This document shows, piece after piece, positions 1,167 to 28,115 of a stretch of DNA of 64,000 nt. Position numbers and translations under genes: made by a program. The notes beneath the pieces were generated by a model. It was not told the origin of the DNA and ran no database searches. It worked only from the letters and a program-made list of their open reading frames with translations. This stretch comes from Escherichia coli (GTDB lineage Bacteria > Pseudomonadota > Gammaproteobacteria > Enterobacterales > Enterobacteriaceae), in assembly GCF_024700885.2 (NCBI RefSeq), contig NZ_CP117016.1; one strand, written 5' to 3'. The stretch's first letter is position 1, and each line of letters starts with the position of its first letter.

Positions 1167-2543
1167 CTATGATATTCCTGAGATATCCTCTTCAAGCTCT
1201 TTTACTGATTTCGCAATTTTAAATTTAAACTTCCTCTCTATTTCACTATTGCTAAGTTTTTTTTCCTTCTCTTTACCTATCCACATAGAAACAAGTTCTC
1301 GTTTCTGAGATATATGTAAATTATCAAAGTTAGGTATGTATTTAAAAGTCTCCGCTCTACCTCTGCGGAGTTCATAGAAAGTTTTAATCAAAGACTTTGG
1401 TTTTATTTCTGATGAAAGGCCGAATCGGTGGATAAGATTATTGATAGTATGATTAACAGAGCGAAGTTGAGCTGTTGAGGTTATTTGTGAGAAGTACGAT
1501 ACCCATCCCAATCGTTTACCTTCAAACACACATCCCGTAATTCTGAGATTTAGTTTCCACTGACAATATGCAACAGCTCGTTCTTTATCACGCTTACTTT
1601 TAGCTTGTAGTAGAGCGTGCCTGTATGCAGTAAAAATCCTTGCTAAAGATGACTCAAATCTAAGAATGCTCTCATGTTTTATCAATAATTCTCGATTTTC
1701 TATGTGGTATCCCAAAAAGTTAAAACTTTCATCCAAGCTGCCTACTTTGGATTTTGAGTTCTCTTCATTTAATGGATGTGGGTTTAAATTTAATGATTGA
1801 AGCTTATCAATGATATGAGAAGCTATTTTTGTTGCTTGATATTTTGGTGTTAAAATAAGAATGTCATCAACGTATCGCATGTACCATATGTCATGCATTT
1901 TATTGATTTCATCATCAAAATTAGATAGTGATATTTCAGCTAAAATGTTTGATATCGCTAATCCCTGAGGTACCCCTCTGGTATTATTCGGGATACCTTT
2001 GCTTCCTGTTGTTCCACTTACAGTAGGCACGATTAATGATGATGTTATTAACTGTCTAATTTCTTTTTTTCTAATTTTATTTTTTATTGTATTAATTATC
2101 AATTTATGTTCAATTGAAGGATAGAAACTTTTAAGATCTATTTTTGCATATTCAGCATAAAGACTGCTGTTTAATGCTTCTTTCAATGAGTCAATTACTG
2201 TATGTGGTAGTTTTAATCTGGAGTTAGGATATATTTCCGTAAGGCATTCACAGAGAGTTCTAAGAGTAATTCTGTCCCTAGCAGTTGGTATGGAAATCTG
2301 TCTGGGTGTAGAGTTAGCGCCTTTAGATATTAATTTTTCTTTATATGCTGTAAATTTGTAATTGCCAGAGTTAACCTTTTCAAAAATGAAAGCGATCTCA
2401 TTTTTTATTGTCAAATCAAGTTTTGATGGGCGAATCCGATCTATGCCAATCGCTCCTGATTCTTTGATTTTTTCAGTGTATACTTTTAGAAGGTTTTTTT
2501 TCGAGAATGACTTTTTAAAAATTCTGCTTGCAGTCATAGTCAA
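1167..2543 (-). CDS. Reverse transcriptase, non-retron, defence-associated (UG/Abi/DRT-like); exact family unassigned
   Basis: 458-aa ORF with ordered RT motifs: PRQISIPTARDRITLR, KIDLKSFYPSI (catalytic Asp), GVPQGLAISN, YMRYVDDILIL (YxDD), FLGYHI; plus ~150-aa helical C-terminal extension. AT-rich. Confidence 0.8.
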   Translation of the reverse strand: MTMTASRIFKKSFSKKNLLKVYTEKIKESGAIGIDRIRPSKLDLTIKNEIAFIFEKVNSGNYKFTAYKEKLISKGANSTPRQISIPTARDRITLRTLCECLTEIYPNSRLKLPHTVIDSLKEALNSSLYAEYAKIDLKSFYPSIEHKLIINTIKNKIRKKEIRQLITSSLIVPTVSGTTGSKGIPNNTRGVPQGLAISNILAEISLSNFDDEINKMHDIWYMRYVDDILILTPKYQATKIASHIIDKLQSLNLNPHPLNEENSKSKVGSLDESFNFLGYHIENRELLIKHESILRFESSLARIFTAYRHALLQAKSKRDKERAVAYCQWKLNLRITGCVFEGKRLGWVSYFSQITSTAQLRSVNHTINNLIHRFGLSSEIKPKSLIKTFYELRRGRAETFKYIPNFDNLHISQKRELVSMWIGKEKEKKLSNSEIERKFKFKIAKSVKELEEDISGIS

Positions 2544-3066
2544 TCCAAAGATATATTAATGGGAGTATATAAAGGGCGGCAGTAGTAAATATTCGAAGTA
2601 ATATCCATAAAATAACAATTATTTTTTCTTTTTGTGTGGGGATCCTCGTCGTAAGTCCAACTTGAGTTACCCTTGAAATTTTATCATCTATGTCACGGTG
2701 ATTCTCAACCTCATTGAGCAAATTAAAATATTTTTCTTTCTGTTCAAGAGTTAACTGTTGACTGGTGGTAATGTCAAAATAGAGTCGCTGTAGTGCAATA
2801 TAATTCCTTCTCATGGCTATTGCTCGACCACGAAAATCTAGGTTAGATACGATCAGCGAAATACCCAGTAGGGCCACCGAAAGTATTGCCGCAACGATAT
2901 CTGTGTTATCTCCTAGAACTTTTGGAAATCGCAACGTTACAATTGAAAGTACCGCACTCAATATAGCATACCAAACGAGGATAAATTGAGAGTGCTTTTC
3001 AAGCCATTCTAGTCGATGGTGCGCTTGGATACGGGCTTTATATGTAAACCAAATATTGTCATGCAT
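2515..3066 (-). CDS. Multi-pass membrane protein with SLATT-like topology; putative effector partner of the RT
   Basis: 183-aa ORF with hydrophobic helices ILVWYAILSAVLSIVTLRF, IVAAILSVALLGISLIVSNL and C-terminal IIVILWILLRIFTTAALYILPLIYLWI. Its stop overlaps the RT start by 29 nt on the same strand. Confidence 0.5.
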   Translation of the reverse strand: MHDNIWFTYKARIQAHHRLEWLEKHSQFILVWYAILSAVLSIVTLRFPKVLGDNTDIVAAILSVALLGISLIVSNLDFRGRAIAMRRNYIALQRLYFDITTSQQLTLEQKEKYFNLLNEVENHRDIDDKISRVTQVGLTTRIPTQKEKIIVILWILLRIFTTAALYILPLIYLWIDYDCKQNF

Positions 3067-3288
3067 AAAAGATCCTTTTTAAAAGCGGAAGGGGCAGGAT
3101 ATATTGGAATCATTGAACATCCTGCCCGGCAGGATCAGTGAGCATAAGCTCAACAGTAAAATATTACTGTTCATTATCAGAGCCGCCCTTGCATGCACAA
3201 GAGGAAAAACCTGCCCCATCCTTTTGAATTATTACAATTTAATGATCTTAAAGTCAATACAAGTGAATGGTGTCCAGAGATGATGAAC

Positions 3289-3537
3289 TTAATGAACAAA
3301 CCACTCGTCAGCAGACTCCCAGGTATCTTTCAGAGTTTCCTGAACAAAAGTTTTAGCTGAATCTTTATCGGCGGTGCGCGTAACAGAAAGGCCATCGTTG
3401 CTGGTGGCTTTTACGATCACCTCTACATCGTCATAACGCTTACTGATGCGTCGAGTTAATTCTTCCTTTAACGCATCCACAGCACCGCTTGGCATTTTAG
3501 TCATTTTCTCTTTAGCTATGCAGATCTCAATACGCAT
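3289..3537 (-). CDS. DinI-family DNA-damage-inducible protein (prophage-type)
   Basis: 82-aa [12 protein letters not shown]...[11 protein letters not shown]...[16 protein letters not shown] matches the DinI family pattern. Confidence 0.7.
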
Positions 3538-20199: not shown

Positions 20200-21432
20200 A
20201 TGTCGTCATTTGATTACCTGAAAACTGCCATCAAGCAACAAGGCTGCACGCTACAGCAGGTAGCTGATGCCAGCGGTATGACCAAAGGGTATTTAAGCCA
20301 GTTACTGAATGCCAAAATTAAAAGCCCCAGCGCGCAAAAGCTGGAGGCGTTGCACCGTTTTTTGGGGCTTGAGTTTCCCCGGCAGAAGAAAACCATTGGT
20401 GTCGTATTCGGTAAGTTCTACCCGCTGCATACCGGACATATCTACCTTATCCAGCGCGCCTGTAGCCAGGTTGACGAGCTGCATATCATTATGGGCTTTG
20501 ACGATACCCGTGACCGTGCGTTGTTTGAAGACAGCGCCATGTCGCAGCAGCCCACGGTGCCGGATCGTCTGCGCTGGTTATTGCAAACCTTTAAATATCA
20601 GAAAAATATCCGTATTCATGCCTTCAACGAAGAGGGCATGGAGCCGTATCCGCACGGCTGGGATGTGTGGAGCAACGGCATCAAAAAGTTTATGGCTGAA
20701 AAGGGGATCCAGCCGGACCTGATCTACACCTCGGAAGAAGCCGATGCGCCACAGTATATGGAACATCTGGGGATCGAGACGGTGCTGGTCGATCCGAAAC
20801 GCACCTTTATGAGTATCAGCGGTGCGCAGATCCGCGAAAACCCGTTCCGCTACTGGGAATATATTCCCACCGAAGTGAAGCCGTTCTTTGTGCGTACCGT
20901 GGCGATCCTTGGCGGCGAGTCGAGCGGTAAATCAACCCTGGTAAACAAACTTGCTAATATCTTCAACACTACCAGTGCATGGGAATATGGTCGCGATTAT
21001 GTCTTTTCACACCTTGGCGGTGATGAGATCGCATTGCAGTATTCCGACTACGATAAAATCGCGCTGGGACACGCTCAATACATTGATTTTGCAGTGAAAT
21101 ATGCCAATAAAGTGGCGTTTATCGACACTGATTTTGTCACTACCCAGGCGTTCTGCAAAAAGTACGAAGGGCGGGAGCATCCGTTCGTGCAGGCGCTGAT
21201 TGATGAATACCGTTTTGATCTGGTGATCCTGCTGGAGAACAACACCCCGTGGGTGGCGGATGGTTTACGCAGCCTCGGCAGTTCGGTGGATCGCAAAGAG
21301 TTCCAGAACTTGCTGGTGGAGATGCTGGAAGAGAACAATATCGAATTTGTGCGGGTTGAAGAGGACGATTACGACAGCCGTTTCCTGCGCTGTGTGGAGC
21401 TGGTGCGGGAGATGATGGGCGAGCAGAGATAA
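20200..21432 (+). CDS. nadR: Bifunctional NMN adenylyltransferase / ribosylnicotinamide kinase / repressor
   Basis: 410-aa product MSSFDYLKTAIKQQGCTLQQVADASGMTKGYLSQLL... Confidence 0.9.
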   Translation: MSSFDYLKTAIKQQGCTLQQVADASGMTKGYLSQLLNAKIKSPSAQKLEALHRFLGLEFPRQKKTIGVVFGKFYPLHTGHIYLIQRACSQVDELHIIMGFDDTRDRALFEDSAMSQQPTVPDRLRWLLQTFKYQKNIRIHAFNEEGMEPYPHGWDVWSNGIKKFMAEKGIQPDLIYTSEEADAPQYMEHLGIETVLVDPKRTFMSISGAQIRENPFRYWEYIPTEVKPFFVRTVAILGGESSGKSTLVNKLANIFNTTSAWEYGRDYVFSHLGGDEIALQYSDYDKIALGHAQYIDFAVKYANKVAFIDTDFVTTQAFCKKYEGREHPFVQALIDEYRFDLVILLENNTPWVADGLRSLGSSVDRKEFQNLLVEMLEENNIEFVRVEEDDYDSRFLRCVELVREMMGEQR

Positions 21433-21465
21433 CCGTGACGAAACGGCTCAAAGGCGAGGTATAAA

Positions 21466-21669
21466 ATGAGTTTTTTTGATAAGTTGAAAACCTCTCTGGA
21501 AGAGGCTGTTGAGATTAAACAAGGTTTAAAAGAACCTGCACGGGTGACCCGCTACGAAATTGCGGATGCTAAGGCTATTCGTGAGCAACTTCATACTCCA
21601 ACTGACCGGTTGCGTAGCCAGAATGCAATCAAATCTGACAGTCCGCTTCGAGCGAAAATCGGAAGTTAG
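21466..21669 (+). CDS. Hypothetical small protein (67 aa)
   Basis: ORF with plausible RBS directly downstream of nadR; no recognisable motif; first gene of the nadR-ettA accessory segment. Confidence 0.3.
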   Translation: MSFFDKLKTSLEEAVEIKQGLKEPARVTRYEIADAKAIREQLHTPTDRLRSQNAIKSDSPLRAKIGS

Positions 21670-21672
21670 TAG

Positions 21673-22221
21673 CTAGTTACCCAATAACTGCTCCCACTCT
21701 TTCTTGAGTAGAGCGAAAATAAATGTATCATCATATTTTTCTACACCATTATCATGTGTGAACGAGACAAACTCTTTAAAACATCCCTCCTGTCGCATAT
21801 GGAGACGAGCACATAGTTTCTGAGAGGCAAAATTATAGTCTTCAACATATGCATAAAGACGTCTGGCTTCTTTTTCAAAAAACAAATATTGAAATAACGC
21901 AGTGACAGATTCTGTAGCATAGCCTTTACCTTCATACCTCTTGTTAAAATGCCAGCCAACTGACCAGGTATTTCTGTCAGACTCCCCCTTATTATCAGCA
22001 AAGAGATGACCAATTAATTCATCAGTCTCTTTAAGGCAAACGGCAAACTGGCTGTTATCAAGGATTCTGCTGTCTATTTCTTTTATCGCATCTTCCAGGG
22101 AGTTGAGTTTTTCGTCCTGAAAACAAGGTGTGCGAGGTGAAGACAGATAATCGAAAAGTGCAGATGCATCTTTATTTTTGAATGCGCGAATAATGAGTCG
22201 CTCTGTAGTCATGAAGATCAT
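21673..22221 (-). CDS. GNAT-family N-acetyltransferase (RimJ/RimL-like)
   Basis: 182-aa ORF with GNAT core (WSVGWHFNKRYEGKGYATESV); true start may be the Met at 22212; AT-rich. Confidence 0.65.
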   Translation of the reverse strand: MIFMTTERLIIRAFKNKDASALFDYLSSPRTPCFQDEKLNSLEDAIKEIDSRILDNSQFAVCLKETDELIGHLFADNKGESDRNTWSVGWHFNKRYEGKGYATESVTALFQYLFFEKEARRLYAYVEDYNFASQKLCARLHMRQEGCFKEFVSFTHDNGVEKYDDTFIFALLKKEWEQLLGN

Positions 22222-22362
22222 GGAAACCTTATGTTATCTGGAGAACTTTTTGTGCATTCTACTAAATAATGATGCTTAGTCATATTAAGCTCATTCTGAT
22301 GTGATCAATGTCTACTTTTGGCACTATACGGACGACCAAACCCAATCAGATCCGACCAGCCG

Positions 22363-22584
22363 TTAGCCAGTGCCAGTTCGGCGCGCGCTTTGGTGTATTT
22401 TCCGGAGTAAATCAGCGTGCCGTGGAAAATTATGCGCAGCGCTTCTGCTGATTTGCGTACCTTCGCAGATGATAAGTCCAGCACTGGCGCGCTGCGCGTA
22501 ATAGGCCGCCATTATGTCAGTCGCAACGTCACCCGCGCGGGAACGCGTCGTCGGTGGCATTACAATACGGTTTATTAATGGCAA
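22363..22584 (-). pseudogene. Truncated remnant of an Old-Yellow-Enzyme-type NADH:flavin oxidoreductase (NemA-like) gene
   Basis: 73-aa ORF whose first ~50 residues (NRIVMPPTTRSRAG...MAAYYAQRASAGLIICEGTQIS) match the OYE N-terminus, then diverge; no downstream continuation. Confidence 0.5.
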
Positions 22585-22632
22585 CGCATTCAGCGCATAT
22601 TTAGCAAATTACGTAATGGGTCCCTCGCGCGA

Positions 22633-22845
22633 TTATTTATACAGTTCGGCACTCATGGTGACGGTATTGCCCATGCGAGCGCTGGTAATTTTGTATTCAG
22701 AGGCGTTCATCTCTTTCGCTTTCTGCGCAATAACCGCTTCAGCGGAATCCAGTGTTGTACCGGTTGCTGTCACGCTTTGCGCCGATGCGTTAAACGCCGC
22801 GACAGAGAAAAGAGAAGCCGTAAAAATTGCGATGATCGTTTTCAT
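22633..22845 (-). CDS. DUF1471 (YdgH/BhsA/McbA-family) small secreted protein
   Basis: 70-aa product MKTIIAIFTASLFSVAAFNASA (signal peptide) ...YKITSARMGNTVTMSAELYK. Confidence 0.65.
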   Translation of the reverse strand: MKTIIAIFTASLFSVAAFNASAQSVTATGTTLDSAEAVIAQKAKEMNASEYKITSARMGNTVTMSAELYK

Positions 22846-23002
22846 GTTTATATTCCAGAGTGTCTTAATTGTTTGGCGTTTATTAACGCGATGGGGAGAG
22901 AATACGCCTGCTGCCTGATAACATAAATGATACAAATGACAATAGACTATTCTGATTTTGTTAATAATCAGACGCCGGACGTTCCGACGCCTGTCGATTG
23001 CA

Positions 23003-23419
23003 TCAGGCAACAAAGTTGTCCTTCAGCGCCTTGAGACCATCCCGATAGATGCCGGTAAACAGCGCTTCGGCCTCTTCGTTCGTCACATTCACCGGGGTGA
23101 ATTCACCGAACCATTCCACACGGGAAACCTGGCTGTCGGCGGTTTCATGAACGGTAATGGTGGAGAGGTAATCCACCACCGGGAACGGTGCCTGAATAAT
23201 GGAATAGGTATAACTGCGTTGACGGTTATCAAACGCTTCCAGACGTTCAACCACAGTGCCGCCGTCAGAGGTTGTCAGCGAACGAACGCGACCGCCTTCT
23301 GTCACTACGCTTTTCGGGATGAACGGCAGCCAGTCTGGCAGCGCATCAAAGCCGCCCATCAATTGCCATACGGCGTCGGTAGAAGCCGGAATTTCGATCG
23401 ATACAGTTGTTTTAGCCAT
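23003..23419 (-). CDS. SRPBCC-superfamily (polyketide-cyclase/START-like) protein
   Basis: 138-aa ORF MAKTTVSIEIPASTDAVWQLMGGFDALPDWLP..., family pattern of small ligand-binding SRPBCC proteins. Confidence 0.55.
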   Translation of the reverse strand: MAKTTVSIEIPASTDAVWQLMGGFDALPDWLPFIPKSVVTEGGRVRSLTTSDGGTVVERLEAFDNRQRSYTYSIIQAPFPVVDYLSTITVHETADSQVSRVEWFGEFTPVNVTNEEAEALFTGIYRDGLKALKDNFVA

Positions 23420-23444
23420 GATAATTTTCTCTTAATTTATAGGG

Positions 23445-24242
23445 TTACATAGTCAGGGTGTCGACGACACCGCCATCGACGCGCAGGGCTGCCCCTGTGG
23501 TTGCCGAGGAAAGCGGTGACGCGAGATAAACCGCCAGATTCGCTACTTCTTCCACATCCGCCGCACGCTGGATGATGGAGCTCGGACGCGAGGTTTTAAC
23601 AAACTCATCGGCCTGTTCACGCGCACTGCGTCCCGATTGTGCAGCGGCATCCGCCAGCATCTCTTTCAGGCCATCGGTAAAGGTTGGCCCTGGCAGAATG
23701 GCGTTGACGGTCACACCGGTCCCCGCCAGTCGTTTCGCCAGACCATGAGAAACCGCCAGATTCGCGGCTTTGGTGACGCCGTAGTTGATCATGTCGCCAG
23801 GGATTGCCACGCCGGATTCGGACGAGACAAAAATAATCCGCCCCCAGCCCTGTTCCGTCATGCCTGGCGCATAGTGACGCGCCAGACGAACGCCGGAGAG
23901 GACGTTGACGTTATAGAAGTGCATCCACTCATCATCCGGAACGCTAAAGAAATCTTTATCGTTAAAAATGCCCAGATTATTGACCAGCACATCAGCCGTT
24001 GGGACTGCAGCGATCAGCGCAGCCACGCCGTCTTCGGTGCTGAGATCCGCCACCACGCCGCGCAGTGACGCTGTGGGGGTTTGTGCCGCAATCGCAGCCA
24101 TGGCGTCATCAACGCCGCTCTGTTTACGGCCGACGACAACCACCGTTGCGCCTGCTTTTGCCAGTCCGGCGGCGATACCCTGCCCAATGCCGGAGGTTGA
24201 GCCGCTGACCACCGCGACTTTACCTGTCAGATCCAGTTTCAT
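23445..24242 (-). CDS. Short-chain dehydrogenase/reductase (SDR)
   Basis: Start MKLDLTGKVAVVSGSTSGIGQGIA (TGxxxGxG Rossmann motif); ORF-track start is further upstream. Confidence 0.8.
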   Translation of the reverse strand: MKLDLTGKVAVVSGSTSGIGQGIAAGLAKAGATVVVVGRKQSGVDDAMAAIAAQTPTASLRGVVADLSTEDGVAALIAAVPTADVLVNNLGIFNDKDFFSVPDDEWMHFYNVNVLSGVRLARHYAPGMTEQGWGRIIFVSSESGVAIPGDMINYGVTKAANLAVSHGLAKRLAGTGVTVNAILPGPTFTDGLKEMLADAAAQSGRSAREQADEFVKTSRPSSIIQRAADVEEVANLAVYLASPLSSATTGAALRVDGGVVDTLTM

Positions 24243-24261
24243 CGTTTTCTCACCAGGTTGA

Positions 24262-25272
24262 TTAACGGGTCGGCAGCGGAGCGTTTTCCGCAACCAGATT
24301 TTGACGGCGCATTTCTGCCCAGAATTCAGCCGGAACAGGCGCATTCAGTGCAGCCAGATCTTCTGCCATACGGCCAGGACGGCTGGAGCCAGGAATAACC
24401 GCTGCAACGGCCGGGTTTGCCAGCGCGAACTGCAGCGCAGCCGCTTTAACGTTCACATTGAAACGTGTGGCAATGGCGTTAATTTGCGCCACTTTCTGCT
24501 GGATGGCCGCAGAAGCTTTCTGATATTCAAAGTGCTCGCCGCCTGCCAGTACGCCAGAGCTGTACGGACCGCCCACAACAATATCCACGTTCTGTTCCAG
24601 TGCTTCTGGCATCAGGCGTTGCAGCGCACGTTCGTGATCCAGCAGGGAATAACGCCCCGCCAGCAGGAACGCATCTGGCTTCGGTTCGTCCAGCGCCAGC
24701 GTCAGTTCACAAGGTTCGACGCGGTTCACACCCAGTCCCCAGGCTTTAATCACACCTTCGTCACGCAAACGTGTCAGTGCACGAAACGCACCGGTACGGG
24801 CTATGTTGAACTGTTCCAGCCAGCTGTCACCGTAGAAGTCCTGTGCCGGGTCGTGGATCCAGACAATATCCAGACGGTCTGTTTTCAGGCGTTTCAGGCT
24901 GTCTTCAATCGAGCGCAGCGTGGCGTCAGCAGAGTAGTCATTCAGAATTTTGTTTTTCAGGCCGTATTCGAACAGGCCACCTTTTTCACCGAAATCACGT
25001 TTTGCCGGATCTTCCATTTCGTCCAGCATGATGCGACCGACTTTGCTGCTCAGAACGTATTCATCACGTGGATACTGAGACAGCGCTTCGCCTATGCGGA
25101 TTTCAGAAAGGCCAGAGCCGTACAGCGGCGCGGTATCAAAGTAACGCACGCCCAGGTTCCAGGCTTCGCTCACGGTGGCGTGGGCCTCGTCTTCCAGAAT
25201 GGCACGGAACATGTTGCCGAGTGGTGCGCCGCCTAAGCCAATTTTGCCGGGAAGTAAATTTTTGATGCTCAT
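24262..25272 (-). CDS. Aldo-keto reductase
   Basis: 336-aa ORF with AKR signatures (IGLGGAPLG, RYFDTAPLYG, IVWIHDP). Confidence 0.8.
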   Translation of the reverse strand: MSIKNLLPGKIGLGGAPLGNMFRAILEDEAHATVSEAWNLGVRYFDTAPLYGSGLSEIRIGEALSQYPRDEYVLSSKVGRIMLDEMEDPAKRDFGEKGGLFEYGLKNKILNDYSADATLRSIEDSLKRLKTDRLDIVWIHDPAQDFYGDSWLEQFNIARTGAFRALTRLRDEGVIKAWGLGVNRVEPCELTLALDEPKPDAFLLAGRYSLLDHERALQRLMPEALEQNVDIVVGGPYSSGVLAGGEHFEYQKASAAIQQKVAQINAIATRFNVNVKAAALQFALANPAVAAVIPGSSRPGRMAEDLAALNAPVPAEFWAEMRRQNLVAENAPLPTR

Positions 25273-25405
25273 AAGATGTCCTCAATTATTCGGTTTGGGT
25301 TAGGGCATTTTTTTGCTATCGCCCTGTGACGTGGATCACAATACCTTGCGAGGTTGTGACTTGATAGGACATAATTCGTCTGACTTAAGTCCTTTGAGGT
25401 CTAAC

Positions 25406-26293
25406 ATGATTGATTTACGCCAACTGAAGTACTTCGTGGTGGTCGCAGAAGAAGAGCACGTGGGACGCGCAGCCGAGCGATTACATATCTCGCAATCACC
25501 GCTGAGCCGCCAGATTGCACAACTGGAAGAACGGCTGGGGCTGACGCTGTTTGAGCGTAATCAGCAGCGCATTCGCCTGACCGCTGATGGACAGACATTC
25601 CTTGCCGAAACACGTTCGTTGCTGACACACGCCAACCGCCTGGAGTCGTTAGGCAAACGCCTGGGACGGGGGGAAGATGGTGGCTTGTGTATTGGCTATA
25701 TCGAAAACGCCATGCATTCCGGTGTGCTTTCTACGGCGCTACGTACGTTACGTGTATCGCGTCCGAATGTGCATATTGCACTTTACAGCCAACCACCGGC
25801 GACCCAGATTGAAGGCCTGCGCCAGCGCAGTCTCGATTTTTCTCTGGTCGATACGCCGCCCACCGACAGCGAGCAGGATCTGGAATATATTCAGGTTCTG
25901 GATGATCGAATGTTGTTGGCCTTACCGCAAAATCATCCTCTGGCGCAGGAGGAAAACCTTGTCGCGTCACAACTTGGCGATGAGCAGTGGATTGCGGTGA
26001 TTCATAACGACGATGCGCATTCTCGCGATCATTTTGTCGCCGCCTGTGTTAACGCCGGGTTTAATCCTGATATTCGCCTGGAAGCGGGTGAACCCCTCAC
26101 GGCATTAGGTCTGGTCGCTGCGGGATTAGGTCTGGCCTTAATTCAACATAGTCTGCGTCATAATGCGCCGGAAGGGGTGGTATTACGTGAATTGCCGTGG
26201 ATGAATTATTCAACGCAATTATGGGCAGCCTGGCATAAAGCCAACCAACGTCCGCTGGTTTCCCATTTCCGCCAGATTTTGCGCGGTGAATAA
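25406..26293 (+). CDS. LysR-family transcriptional regulator
   Basis: Start MIDLRQLKYFVVVAEEEHVGRAAERLHISQSPLSRQIAQLEERLG (LysR HTH); divergent from the aldo-keto reductase gene. Confidence 0.85.
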   Translation: MIDLRQLKYFVVVAEEEHVGRAAERLHISQSPLSRQIAQLEERLGLTLFERNQQRIRLTADGQTFLAETRSLLTHANRLESLGKRLGRGEDGGLCIGYIENAMHSGVLSTALRTLRVSRPNVHIALYSQPPATQIEGLRQRSLDFSLVDTPPTDSEQDLEYIQVLDDRMLLALPQNHPLAQEENLVASQLGDEQWIAVIHNDDAHSRDHFVAACVNAGFNPDIRLEAGEPLTALGLVAAGLGLALIQHSLRHNAPEGVVLRELPWMNYSTQLWAAWHKANQRPLVSHFRQILRGE

Positions 26294-26399
26294 AACGTTA
26301 AGCGGGAACCATGAGTTCCCGCTTGATTTGAGATGTCAGTCCGCATCTGAGCTAATACGCTTAAAGAAAATTCTGCCTTTTCCGGGGACTCATCATTTA

Positions 26400-26445
26400 A
26401 CTAATACCGGCTGCGATGCTGGCGCGCCGCATCCGGCATTTTACG
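26400..26445. repeat. REP-like element
   Basis: gcgcgccgcatccggcat motif downstream of the ettA 3-prime end. Confidence 0.35.
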
Positions 26446-26447
26446 CA

Positions 26448-28115
26448 TTACTTCGCAATGCGCTTGTACTTGATACGCTTCGGCTCCAGCGCGTCTGCGC
26501 CCAGCGTGCGTTTCTTGTACTCTTCGTACTCGGTAAAGTTACCTTCGAAGAACTCAACTTTACCTTCATCCTGGTAGTCCAGGATGTGCGTGGCGATACG
26601 GTCGAGGAACCAACGGTCGTGCGAGATAACCATCGCGCAGCCCGGGAACTCCAGCAGGGCGTTTTCCAGCGCACGCAGGGTTTCGATATCCAGGTCGTTG
26701 GTTGGTTCGTCGAGCAGCAGCATGTTGCCGCCAACTTGCAGCAGCTTCGCCAGATGCAGACGACCGCGCTCACCGCCGGAGAGTTCACCAACGCGTTTAC
26801 CCTGATCAACCCCTTTAAAGTTAAAGCGGCCAACGTAGGCGCGGCTTGGCATCTCGGTGTTGCCGATTTTCATGATATCCAGCCCGCCGGAAACTTCTTC
26901 CCAAACGGTTTTGCTGTTATCCATTGAGTCACGGAACTGATCAACCGATGCCAGTTTCACCGTTTCACCCAAAGTGATGGTGCCGCTGTCCGGCTGTTCC
27001 TGACCAGAGATCATACGGAACAGCGTCGATTTACCCGCACCGTTCGGACCGATGATCCCGACGATCGCCCCTTTCGGGATCGAGAAACTCAGATCATCAA
27101 TCAGCAGACGATCGCCATAGGATTTACGCAGATTGCTGACTTCCAGCACTTTGTCGCCCAGACGCGGTCCAGGTGGAATAAACAGTTCGTTGGTTTCGTT
27201 ACGTTTCTGATATTCGGTGCTGTTCAGCTCTTCAAAGCGTGCCAGACGTGCTTTACCTTTCGACTGACGGCCTTTAGTTCCCTGACGTACCCACTCCAGC
27301 TCTTTCTCAATCGACTTACGACGCGCCGCTTCTTGTGAAGCTTCCTGCGCCAGGCGCTGATCTTTCTGCTCCAGCCAGGAGGAGTAGTTGCCTTCCCACG
27401 GAATACCTTCACCGCGGTCCAGTTCGAGGATCCAGCCTGCAACGTTATCGAGGAAGTAACGGTCGTGAGTAATCGCTACAACGGTGCCTTCGAAGTCGTG
27501 CAGGAAGCGTTCCAGCCACGCCACGGATTCGGCATCCAGGTGGTTCGTCGGTTCGTCGAGCAGCAGCATGTCTGGTTTTTCCAGCAGCAGGCGGCACAAC
27601 GCCACGCGACGACGCTCACCACCGGAGAGGTTAGCGATTTTCGCGTCCCAGTCCGGCAGACGCAGCGCATCCGCCGCACGCTCCAGCTGAACGTTCAGGT
27701 TGTGACCGTCGTGAGCCTGAATGATCTCTTCCAGACGGCCCTGTTCAGCGGCCAGTTTGTCAAAATCGGCATCCGGATCGGCGTACAGCGCATACACTTC
27801 ATCCAGACGTTTCAGAGCGTTAACCACTTCAGAAACCGCTTCTTCAATGGACTCACGTACGGTGTGTTCCGGGTTGAGCTGAGGTTCCTGCGGCAGATAA
27901 CCAATCTTGATATCCGGTTGCGGACGCGCTTCGCCTTCGATGTCTTTATCAATGCCCGCCATAATGCGCAGCAGGGTGGACTTACCCGCGCCGTTCAGAC
28001 CCAGGACACCAATTTTTGCCCCAGGGAAGAAACTCAGAGAGATGTTTTTCAAAATATGACGTTTCGGCGGAACAACTTTGCCGACACGATGCATGGTATA
28101 AACGAATTGAGCCAC
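26448..28115 (-). CDS. ettA: Energy-dependent translational throttle protein EttA (ABC-F)
   Basis: 555-aa product MAQFVYTMHRVGKVVPPKRHILKNISLSFFPGAKIGVLGLNGAGKST; two ABC cassettes. Confidence 0.9.
   Translation of the reverse strand: MAQFVYTMHRVGKVVPPKRHILKNISLSFFPGAKIGVLGLNGAGKSTLLRIMAGIDKDIEGEARPQPDIKIGYLPQEPQLNPEHTVRESIEEAVSEVVNALKRLDEVYALYADPDADFDKLAAEQGRLEEIIQAHDGHNLNVQLERAADALRLPDWDAKIANLSGGERRRVALCRLLLEKPDMLLLDEPTNHLDAESVAWLERFLHDFEGTVVAITHDRYFLDNVAGWILELDRGEGIPWEGNYSSWLEQKDQRLAQEASQEAARRKSIEKELEWVRQGTKGRQSKGKARLARFEELNSTEYQKRNETNELFIPPGPRLGDKVLEVSNLRKSYGDRLLIDDLSFSIPKGAIVGIIGPNGAGKSTLFRMISGQEQPDSGTITLGETVKLASVDQFRDSMDNSKTVWEEVSGGLDIMKIGNTEMPSRAYVGRFNFKGVDQGKRVGELSGGERGRLHLAKLLQVGGNMLLLDEPTNDLDIETLRALENALLEFPGCAMVISHDRWFLDRIATHILDYQDEGKVEFFEGNFTEYEEYKKRTLGADALEPKRIKYKRIAK

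Follow-up and report, generated by a model that had tools for sequence, protein, structure and literature searches.

A broken nadS gene and an imported acetyltransferase gene meet tail to tail downstream of nadR in Escherichia coli

The close convergence of a 67-aa open reading frame (ORF) and a GNAT acetyltransferase gene downstream of nadR in Escherichia coli is most probably the trace left by a decaying gene and an insertion and not a functional pair (probability about 0.88). Both lie in a stretch of 64,000 nucleotides of the E. coli chromosome (the window), which has the gene order radA-nadR ... ettA-slt. The preliminary description of a 67-aa ORF and a GNAT gene that converge across a gap of 3 bp is borne out by the ORF coordinates and by the sequence at the junction. 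The stop codons of the 67-aa ORF, which starts with ATG, and of the 182-aa GNAT ORF, both taken from the open reading frame list of the window (Table 1), are separated by exactly 3 bp (21670-21672), and the junction reads ...GGA AGT TAG / TAG / CTA GTT ACC... In identical genomes, RefSeq/PGAP marks nadS as a pseudogene (21466-21594; 'incomplete, missing C-terminus') and GNAT as a CDS (21673-22221).

Table 1. Coordinates of the features discussed in the text (positions in the window) and the evidence for each.
Feature	Position	Strand	Evidence or remark
HigB2-like (RelE/ParE) toxin gene remnant	21436..21464	+	Last 9 codons and stop (29 bp); begins 3 bp past the nadR stop
67-aa ORF: nadS codons 1-43 and 24 codons of repeat read-through (residues 44-67)	21466..21669	+	Repeat profile, NadS alignment
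nadS 5' fragment (pseudogene), first 43 codons of the gene for a HigA2-like antitoxin (94 aa)	21466..21594	+	NCBIfam, alignment, PGAP
~80-nt dispersed element, phage P2 Z region 'right inverted repeat'	21590..21670	+	nhmmer profile of 10 copies, E = 2.7e-24
4.8-kb island in place of nadS codons 44-80	21591..26360		Left and right junction alignments
GNAT N-acetyltransferase WP_000576894.1, Acetyltransf_3 / RimJ-RimL-like	21673..22221	-	Pfam, PDB, motif A
Sigma-70 promoter-like site (ATGACT-16-TAGAAT) upstream of GNAT, inside the insert	22256..22283	-	Consensus scan only
Decayed alkene reductase (OYE family)	22305..22584	-	686-bp internal deletion, last 36 codons lost
Putative inner part (~27 nt) of a P2 Z-region 'left inverted repeat', joined to the reductase remnant	22307..22333		22/27 consensus positions
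nadS 3' remnant (codon ~81 onward, with small deletions)	26361..26400	+	26361-26600 vs L004 3272-3523, 92%

The preliminary description took the 67-aa ORF for a small gene unrelated to its neighbor and proposed a homology search as a check. This search identifies the product as the N-terminus of NadS, an antitoxin remnant of a HigBA2-like module, which had been missed. The NCBIfam model of NadS (NF041265) matches residues 1-44 of the ORF (E = 5e-21) with a score of 74.7 bits, which exceeds the cut-off of 60 bits but covers only positions 1-44 of the 94-position model, and 40 of the 44 residues are identical to those of full-length NadS. Similarity to NadS stops at residue 44, and neither Pfam nor NCBIfam matches an HTH domain in the ORF. 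The reading frame ends at TAG TAG, which is the inner end of the repeat element and also the boundary of the GNAT-carrying insert. On the evidence of the family model and the repeat profile, the ORF is not a gene but a broken nadS that reads on into a P2-type repeat.

The frame of this chimera is not conserved. The ORF is present only in the 19 genomes that carry GNAT at this site, of which E. coli 1190 (NZ_CP023386) is an example. In one representative each of the other island types (L003, L017, and L018), a 10-bp deletion interrupts the frame with a stop at codon 24, and two of the three have also lost the ATG of nadS. The designation as an unrelated small gene is therefore replaced by that of a truncated nadS joined to a repeat. 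The absence of a functional relationship to GNAT does hold, given the identity with NadS and the differing neighbors of the GNAT orthologues. If made, the peptide would have no function or at most a vestigial one.

Several other origins of the ORF tail were rejected. A frameshifted 3' half of nadS (frame 3) is plausible by eye, but 622 of 1000 shuffled sequences scored as well, and the NadS HMM does not reach the tail. A duplicated C-terminus of the alkene reductase is not significant when compared with the reductase remnant of the window itself (122 of 2000 shuffles) or with the intact OYE 3' ends of L020 and L023, and there is no Pfam match. The tail has no similarity to the yiaG/cspA region, and the possibility of an attC site, a structured RNA, or a terminator is contradicted by a folding z of about 0, by Rfam matches that are only noise at E ≤ 10, and by the lack of a terminator.

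The intact counterpart of the locus, represented by genome L004, consists of a HigB2-like toxin gene followed by nadS and is present in 674 of the 5426 complete E. coli genomes over which all genome counts were taken (about 12%). The full toxin (WP_000513550.1) is similar to HigB-2 of Vibrio cholerae (PDB 5ja8/8a0x; E = 8e-17) and matches the Pfam family RelE (PF06296). Full-length NadS carries an HTH_3 domain (Pfam; aa 35-79), and its similarity to HigA-2 (E = 2e-6) is detected only in this C-terminal HTH part (aa 33-91). The gene order, with the toxin first and the XRE-HTH antitoxin second, is the same in the V. cholerae HigB2/HigA2 system and in L004. By contrast, the window has retained only 29 bp of the toxin gene, so that no RelE/ParE toxin precedes the antitoxin, and the antitoxin itself lacks the HTH domain, with only 43 N-terminal and a few 3' codons remaining. 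The toxin remnant aligns with the 3' end of the L004 toxin CDS (2697-3029) and has an identical spacing of 1 nt to the ATG of nadS; a tblastn search of the window found no copy of the toxin gene beyond these 29 bp.

Judged by these alignments, the nadS locus of the window is a relic and not a module. A region with the nadS 5' fragment is matched in 5011 of the 5426 genomes, and most E. coli retain a similar fragment. In about 56 genomes, the 3' half of nadS is present without a complete toxin; most others have only the 5' stump, and E. coli W carries a further damaged copy of the fragment. The locus illustrates the decay of a chromosomal HigBA2-like module.

The present arrangement goes back to an ancestral HigB2/HigA2-type operon downstream of nadR, with the toxin gene first and nadS second. 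In the genome of the window, all of the toxin gene but the final 29 bp was deleted, and nadS codons 44-80 were replaced by the 4.8-kb island. At the left end of this island lies a ~80-nt repeat, of the same type as those around the variable ORFs in the Z/fun region of phage P2. The slot behind the repeat holds a single GNAT gene with its own promoter-like site, and this gene is nearly identical to a chromosomal gene of Morganella morganii that has the same repeat ends. Translation from the intact ATG of nadS would continue through the repeat as far as the TAG TAG at its inner border, which is separated by 3 bp from the stop of GNAT.

The nhmmer profile detects no full copy in the window other than the repeat that begins the island. 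Its BLAST matches include phage P2 (NC_001895, 17429-17505), other P2-like phages, and the 'right inverted repeat' features of AJ512685/80/83/76; the identity with P2-family copies is 77-82%. The element occurs also at further E. coli loci and is matched in 1384 of the 5426 genomes. The sizes used for the P2-type repeats were ~80-91 nt (right) and 113 nt (left). GenBank entries AJ512676-AJ512685 contain Z/fun ORFs of P2-like coliphages that lie between a left and a right inverted repeat, and the variable ORFs and repeats of this region were reportedly described by Nilsson, Karlsson, and Haggard-Ljungquist in 2004 (Mol Biol Evol 21:1, pmid 12949155). On the far side of the insert, the left-repeat stretch has the expected place and orientation; its 22 matches to the 27 positions of a five-copy consensus were counted by hand and lie below what the left-repeat HMM reports at E ≤ 10. 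The remainder of the left repeat is replaced by the reductase remnant. At the right end of the island (26335-26356), a motif resembling the repeat core agrees by eye at about 19 of 26 positions and is not reported by the right-repeat profile at E ≤ 1.

The similarity to the P2 Z/fun region comprises a right repeat at one boundary of the insert, a putative inverted partial repeat on its far side, a low-GC insert that consists of a single gene with its own promoter-like site, and unrelated alternative contents at identical boundaries. The P2 region differs in its location between the tail genes G and FI, whereas the slot of the window is chromosomal, lies inside the decayed nadS beside an island of redox enzymes, and has a putative left repeat of only ~27 nt. 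No phage genes are annotated near nadR, the nadS fragment, or the redox island. Integron cassettes are also small promoter-bearing or single-ORF units (of the GNAT, TA, or DUF type) between short inverted sequences, but their R''/R' cores (RYYYAAC / GTTRRRY) are not matched on reading the window sequence, and the repeat lacks an attC-like hairpin. It folds no better than shuffled sequence on either strand (21580-21685; z about 0). The annotation of the first 50 kb of the window contains no integrase.

The GNAT gene is intact and of foreign origin, an imported single-gene insert. The Pfam domain Acetyltransf_3 (PF13302) is matched over its full length (aa 8-143, covering all 138 profile positions; E = 1.4e-20). 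The best PDB match is 3fbu (E = 4.5e-19), a GNAT family acetyltransferase of unknown function, and other top matches are RimL/RimJ-like proteins, 1nsl (a probable acetyltransferase), PA3944, and SpeG-like proteins. The acetyl-CoA motif A (R95-Y-E-G98-K-G100; R-x-x-G-x-G) is conserved together with other invariant residues in 14 homologues, in all of which G100 is invariant. The domain and PDB matches agree with the preliminary assignment to the RimJ/RimL type, but the attribute "housekeeping" does not stand. The gene is accessory, occurring in only 19 of the 5426 genomes; it has a GC content of 0.38 and occupies a repeat-flanked slot with alternative contents. Its scores of 36.5 bits with the RimJ equivalog (PRK10809; cut-off 190) and 29.7 bits with the RimL equivalog (PRK10151; cut-off 184) lie far below both cut-offs.

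Orthologues of the GNAT are present in Morganella (91% amino acid identity), Ewingella (84%), and Yersinia (77%), and the same repeat accompanies the gene in Morganella and Ewingella. In M. morganii, the DNA identity is 91% from position 22329 to 21650, which includes the repeat ends on both sides and points to a foreign origin. The dN/dS ratio of 0.15 and the conserved motif A speak for an intact gene, and the hexamers of the promoter-like site are also kept upstream of the orthologue. The gene probably encodes a working acetyl-CoA-dependent N-acetyltransferase that would act on a small-molecule amine or a protein N-terminus and would be expressed from its own promoter. An origin as a P2-phage gene was rejected; no P2-like phage record encodes the GNAT.

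The ORF consists of a nadS stump and repeat read-through, and the GNAT gene is an imported single-gene insert; their tail-to-tail contact is therefore an accident of insertion and no designed overlap. Overlapping transcripts are physically possible, because there is no terminator between the genes: a search for intrinsic-terminator-like hairpins between 21300 and 22700 found none (0.9 expected). The convergent transcription over the 3-bp gap could thus amount to a meaningful antisense regulation between GNAT and nadR with the adjoining nadS fragment, as would fit not only the missing terminator but also a repeat that folds like its shuffles and a promoter-like site of GNAT that faces nadR. We consider this unlikely, however, since the arrangement is born of an insertion and found in only 19 genomes, since the same flank elsewhere faces other genes on the other strand, and since Rho-dependent termination of untranslated read-through is to be expected. 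Any overlap of transcripts would be an incidental by-product of the insertion.

A second alternative concerns the peptide itself. All 19 GNAT-type genomes have kept the ATG of nadS, its spacing to nadR, and an undisturbed frame of 43 codons, and a comparable nadS remnant of strain K-12 has been reported as translated (PMC12350097), on which grounds a small peptide is probably made also from the stump in the window. According to two studies on the V. cholerae antitoxin (PMC5416850, PMC11006873), the disordered N-terminal segment of VcHigA2 neutralizes the toxin and the C-terminal HTH domain binds DNA. A truncated NadS expressed together with nadR might accordingly act as an orphan antitoxin that protects against incoming HigB2-like toxins (anti-addiction), and the native ATG with aa 1-43 still following in its frame, the similar 5' fragment in most E. 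coli, and the translated K-12 fragment are compatible with this role. Yet the role of the NadS N-terminus would be assigned only by position, because similarity to HigA2 is confined to the HTH part. Moreover, the frame is interrupted in L003, L017, and L018 (two of them without the ATG), the copy of E. coli W is damaged further, and the window has no HigB2-like toxin gene. Such a function appears quite improbable, and decay of nadS remains the preferred reading.

The last alternative is a toxin-antitoxin pair, which the preliminary description had already set aside. This judgment is supported by the absence of toxin similarity and of a conserved partner and by the origin of the ORF from nadS. 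Known GNAT toxins (TacT, AtaT, KacT, and ItaT, which are paired with DUF1778/RHH antitoxins) share only the GNAT fold with the protein of the window, which lacks a sequence match to them, an upstream RHH/DUF1778 gene, and a conserved pairing. None of the four appears by name among the 26 PDB chains matched at E ≤ 10, which comprise 3fbu, RimL/RimJ-like proteins, PA3944, SpeG, AAC(6'), and MccE, and NCBIfam gives only weak matches to RimJ and RimL; a toxin identity of the GNAT was rejected accordingly. That GNAT has no co-directional antitoxin upstream, as already stated in the preliminary description, is evident from the sequence beyond 22222 (minus strand), which contains the promoter-like site, the repeat remnant, and alkene-reductase fragments. 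The orthologues in Morganella, Ewingella, and Yersinia have differing neighbors and no small partner gene in common. A new convergent type II pair of GNAT and the 67-aa ORF, suggested only by the 3-bp proximity and the existence of GNAT toxins, is scarcely credible in view of a GNAT of the Acetyltransf_3 / RimJ-RimL type, orthologues of 77-91% identity with unrelated neighbors, an ORF made of a repeat and the fragment of a different antitoxin, and a flank that adjoins TauE/SafE or DUF2846 in other genomes. For annotation, this means that neither a gene should be entered for the 67-aa ORF nor a candidate toxin-antitoxin system for the pair.

The locus as a whole is an ordinary pseudogene beside an accessory insert, and only the repeat-flanked slot is mildly interesting. 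The island comprises, in this order, the repeat, the GNAT insert, the OYE remnant, and genes for DUF1471, SRPBCC, SDR, aldo/keto reductase, and LysR proteins; it is followed by the nadS 3' remnant, a REP-like sequence (by reading), and ettA. Both fragments of the alkene reductase, which PGAP labels 'alkene reductase, incomplete', match Pfam Oxidored_FMN; the intact reference is a 365-aa gene (L020, 8806-9903). Among the 5426 genomes, the slot contains GNAT in 19, TauE/SafE and wHTH in 21, and DUF2846 in one, and it is deleted in roughly 440-460. The shared flanks of the alternative forms end at 21666-21667 and resume at 22315-22319. The common island without GNAT (L003 type) is not a deletion of the GNAT form but derives from the TauE lineage, because the L003 type and the TauE form have in common a 10-bp deletion and TTG as start codon. 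The proposal that the slot contents are known anti-phage genes was rejected, as PADLOC found no such gene among GNAT, TauE/SafE, wHTH, and DUF2846.

The repeat that frames the P2 Z/fun hotspot also frames a swappable single-gene slot on the chromosome. We know of no recombinase that has been assigned to the P2 Z-region repeats. It is conceivable, if rather doubtful, that the ~30-nt inner repeat ends (...GAGCGAGAAGCGGAAGTT / insert / AACTTCCGCTYTTGGCAC...) are the substrate of a site-specific or hairpin-directed recombination activity. In several Enterobacterales (E. coli, Morganella, Ewingella, and possibly Yersinia), this activity would exchange inserts of a single gene between the hotspots of P2-like phages and sites on the chromosome. 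If true, the nadS slot would offer a clean natural setting in which to find the recombinase and to explain how the hotspots of phage defense and 'moron' genes are reloaded. As reservoirs of anti-phage genes, the hotspots of P2 are now under study (PMC9122126). A phage-free slot with three alleles is a useful handle, albeit no discovery in itself.

The nadS slot has three alternative contents and deleted forms on otherwise near-identical flanks, with no phage around. In E. whittamii, the same island sits in the yiaG/cspA region.

The preliminary description placed the two frames correctly: the 67-aa ATG frame and the convergent 182-aa frame in the ORF listing end tail to tail, and the stretch GGA AGT TAG / TAG / CTA GTT ACC sets their stop codons 3 bases apart. 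It also rightly recognized a GNAT acetyltransferase (Pfam Acetyltransf_3, full-length domain, E=1.4e-20). Its "unrelated small gene" is unrelated insofar as the two frames have separate histories, but it is not a gene; the 67-aa frame is a stump of nadS continued by read-through of a repeat, and it touches the GNAT frame only because the boundary of an insert falls there. The finding as stated is thus ordinary, a pseudogene stump beside a horizontally acquired accessory acetyltransferase. There is no novelty in either annotation, as PGAP already carries both ("nadS, NadS family protein, incomplete, missing C-terminus" and "GNAT family N-acetyltransferase", WP_000576894.1) in NZ_CM128597.1, whose coordinates match the window one for one, and in other identical genomes.

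Features of the locus and their counterparts (strand in parentheses)
Feature	Window position	Counterpart elsewhere
HTH-only ORF, 87 aa	15691-15954 (-)	
Toxin gene remnant	21436-21464	
67-aa ORF	21466-21669 (+)	
nadS stump annotated by PGAP	21466-21594	
Sequence matching intergenic sites	21588-21672	phage P2 NC_001895 17429-17505
Full repeat copy	21590-21670	L099 8001-8077; L100 3999-4079; L101 3999-4079; L102 3994-4072; L105 (phage P2) 2499-2579
Island	21591-26360	
Segment lost in deleted form	21651-22376	
Slot	21668-22314	L017 (TauE/SafE form) 1999-3500; L018 (DUF2846 form) 2568-3496
GNAT gene, 182 aa	21673-22221 (-)	
Promoter-like site	22283-22256	
LysR-to-OYE block	22305-26293	L020-L031
Diverged right-hand repeat copy	22307-22333	
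Repeat/OYE junction	22318-22333	
Whole OYE gene (E. coli E69)		L020 8806-9903
Weak inverted repeat-like match (E69)		L020 10357-10390
1829-aa ORF (E69)		L020 10670-16159
Repeat-core-like sequence	26335-26356	
Resumed nadS similarity	26361-26600	L004 (intact module) 3272-3523

The homology search that had been proposed for the 67-aa protein identifies residues 1-44 as the NadS N-terminus (positions 1-44 of the 94-position NCBIfam model NF041265, E=5e-21), with 40/44 residues identical to the full-length NadS of an E. coli with an intact module (L004) and no similarity beyond. Full-length NadS carries an XRE-type HTH (aa 35-79) and matches the Vibrio cholerae antitoxin HigA-2 over aa 33-91 (PDB 5jaa, E=2e-6); in L004, it is preceded with 1-nt spacing by the gene of a 110-aa RelE/ParE-family toxin that matches V. 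cholerae HigB-2 (PDB 5ja8/8a0x, E=8e-17). The locus therefore originally read nadR, higB2-like toxin, nadS, ettA, in a chromosomal order that runs in the window from yjjZ through the deo operon, lplA, serB, radA, and nadR to ettA, slt, and the thr operon. Only the last 29 bp of the toxin gene remain, directly after the nadR stop, and tblastn found no second copy in the window. Because toxin and HTH domain are gone, the locus is a relic that no longer belongs to the HigBA2-type modules. Among 5426 complete E. coli genomes, 674 have the whole module and 730 the 3' half of nadS, leaving about 56 without a complete toxin; most of the remaining genomes have a K-12-type 5' stump ended by REP-like sequence. 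As read from the K-12-like loci (L005 3144-3300, L006), this REP/BIME-like sequence, not an island, ends nadS at codon 38, just after the equivalent of 21579, a truncation that arose independently only a few codons away from the island junction.

The stump in the window could well be translated, because it has kept its native ATG and distance to nadR and a reporter-transposon screen reported translation of the comparable K-12 stump (PMC12350097). Since PMC5416850 ascribes toxin neutralization by VcHigA2 to its N-terminal disordered segment, a residual role of such a peptide as an orphan antitoxin is conceivable; however, the similarity between NadS and HigA2 is found in the HTH part only and the stump is frameshifted in sister genomes, which makes this role very improbable. 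In all three representatives of non-GNAT forms that were compared, a 10-bp deletion makes the frame end at codon 24, and the 67-aa frame, about whose conservation the preliminary description had asked, occurs only in GNAT-type genomes. The product of this nadS stump, if made, would be a vestigial peptide.

Similarity of the window to intact nadS ends at about 21590 and restarts at 26361, where the alignment (92%) runs from about codon 81 of nadS through downstream REP-like sequence towards ettA; therefore, a 4.8-kb island replaces codons 44-80. Its components, starting from the left, are the repeat element, GNAT, what is left of an alkene reductase gene (OYE family), DUF1471 (YdgH/BhsA), SRPBCC, SDR, aldo/keto reductase, and a LysR regulator. 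The OYE gene, whole in E. coli E69 (365 aa), has a 686-bp internal deletion in the window and lacks its last 36 codons. The block from LysR to OYE is a mobile unit, which is located inside nadS in about 500 E. coli genomes, adjoins cspA-yiaG in Escherichia whittamii, and occurs at 75-95% protein identity in Trabulsiella, Yokenella, Yersinia, Raoultella, Serratia, Ewingella, and Providencia. Close to the island's right end, on its inner side, GATGTCAGTCCGCATCTGAGC is similar to the repeat core CTGACAGTCCGCTTTGAGC in direct orientation (about 19/26 positions by eye); the right-repeat profile search did not report it.

The remaining codons of the 67-aa frame (44-67) come from a repeat of the kind present in phage P2. 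In BLAST searches, most of the corresponding stretch aligns at 76-85% identity with intergenic sites elsewhere in E. coli genomes, always within prophages or islands, and a match is present in 1384/5426 genomes in total; it also matches many P2-like phages and P2 itself, between fun(Z) and the pF activator site upstream of FI. Entries AJ512685, AJ512680, AJ512683, and AJ512676 ("Bacteriophage P2-ECxx proviral Z-region") label it "right inverted repeat", and the AJ5126xx entries show a 113-bp "left inverted repeat" across variable "putative lysogenic conversion" ORFs. Rousset et al. (2022) cite a 2004 Z-region paper as the description of one of two loci that vary among P2-like phages. A profile of ten copies detects exactly one full copy in the window (E=2.7e-24) and, beyond the variable gene, inverted partial copies in P2, P2-EC67, P2-EC46, and two E. 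coli prophages. The ORF thus consists of nadS codons 1-43 followed by read-through of the repeat, ending with TAG TAG at its inner edge. Three other candidate sources of these codons (a nadS 3' half after a frameshift, a duplication of part of OYE, and yiaG-region DNA) scored no better than shuffled sequence. The element (about 80 nt, consensus ACTCCAACTGACAGTTTGCGTAGCCAGAATGCAATCAAATCTGACAGTCCGCTTTGAGCGAGAAGCGGAAGTT; no Rfam family) is dispersed: it borders variable genes in P2-like prophages, adjoins prophage integrases, and occurs in islands; the L101 copy has a compensatory change in a short hairpin (CCGC...GCGG to CTGC...GCAG).

Comparison of three island forms delimits a swappable slot: their common flanks end at 21666-21667 and resume at 22315-22319, with wholly different sequence between. 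It holds GNAT in 19 genomes (647 bp, GC 0.38), a TauE/SafE exporter with a winged-helix regulator in 21 (1502 bp), and a DUF2846 protein in one (929 bp); the latter two contents are seen nowhere else in the E. coli collection. The inner boundaries form an inverted repeat (...GAGCGAGAAGCGGAAGTT / insert / AACTTCCGCTYTTGGCAC...). In the window, the right-hand copy has diverged (AATGTCTACTTTTGGCACTATACGGAC; 22/27 positions of the left-repeat consensus by hand count, below significance by HMM) and is fused to the OYE remnant. At this junction, OYE (TTGGCAATAAACGGAC) and repeat (TTGGCACAGAGCGGAC) look alike, which suggests a microhomology-mediated deletion. In about 440-460 genomes, the slot and the inner ends of both repeats are deleted (TTCG microhomology); in this form, as in the TauE form, the nadS stump starts with TTG and lacks the same 10 bp, so it derives from the TauE lineage rather than from the GNAT form. 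In E. coli E69, a weak inverted repeat-like match (E=0.49) follows the intact OYE gene, and the 1829-aa ORF after it, on the opposite strand, may be a much larger content of the same slot. Such a phage-free chromosomal slot between P2 Z-region repeats, with three alternative contents, is a by-product of mild interest.

The nearest GNAT homolog is a chromosomal gene of Morganella morganii (91% aa). The DNA match (91%) extends from 22329 to 21650 and, besides the gene, takes in the promoter-like region and the inner end of each repeat. The Morganella gene is followed by a second GNAT gene, unrelated to it, and then by another right-repeat copy. The Ewingella orthologue is likewise flanked, where repeats would be expected, by weak matches to them (E=0.07, 0.015). 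The repeats accompany GNAT in other genera too. Apart from this, the genes around the orthologues in Morganella, Ewingella, and Yersinia are unrelated to one another, and no small partner is conserved among them. Conservation of the family is broad, with 53-57% identity still seen in Chryseobacterium and Paenibacillus. Among 14 homologs, motif A (R95-x-x-G98-x-G100) and many other GNAT residues do not vary, and dN/dS is 0.15 against the Morganella orthologue; the gene is thus intact and subject to purifying selection.

The doubts of the preliminary description about a toxin pairing were borne out: all three testable criteria for GNAT toxin-antitoxin pairs gave a negative result, and no GNAT toxin appears among the PDB matches even at E<=10. 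PADLOC gave no match for the gene. The alternative of the preliminary description, a RimJ/RimL-type housekeeping enzyme, holds for the type, with Acetyltransf_3 and weak RimL/RimJ-like matches, but not for housekeeping, as the gene is accessory (19/5426 genomes) and scores far below the NCBIfam equivalog cut-offs of both RimJ and RimL. In the PDB, 3fbu, a GNAT whose function is unknown, matches best (E=4.5e-19), ahead of, among others, 1nsl (probable acetyltransferase), PA3944, and SpeG-like proteins. We conclude that the gene probably encodes an accessory acetyl-CoA-dependent N-acetyltransferase, putatively expressed from its own promoter-like site (ATGACT-16-TAGAAT, consensus scan), which would act without the ORF product. 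Because no terminator-like hairpin was found in 21300-22700, the convergent transcripts may overlap as a side effect.

The insert shares three of five features with the repeat-flanked class of the P2 Z-region, namely a right repeat on one side, contents that differ between genomes while the boundaries stay the same, and its own promoter-like site with low GC. On the other side, 27 nt only resemble the left repeat. The insert does not lie in a P2-like prophage, and no P2-like phage record encodes this GNAT. It is not an integron cassette: it has neither core sites nor hairpin, and no integrase is annotated in the first 50 kb of the window.

Between deoD and lplA (gap about 450 bp), an HTH-only ORF has a weak NadS-like HTH match (E=0.005). 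Since K-12 has a much longer HipA-like yjjJ at this position, this ORF may be another truncated toxin-antitoxin-related gene.
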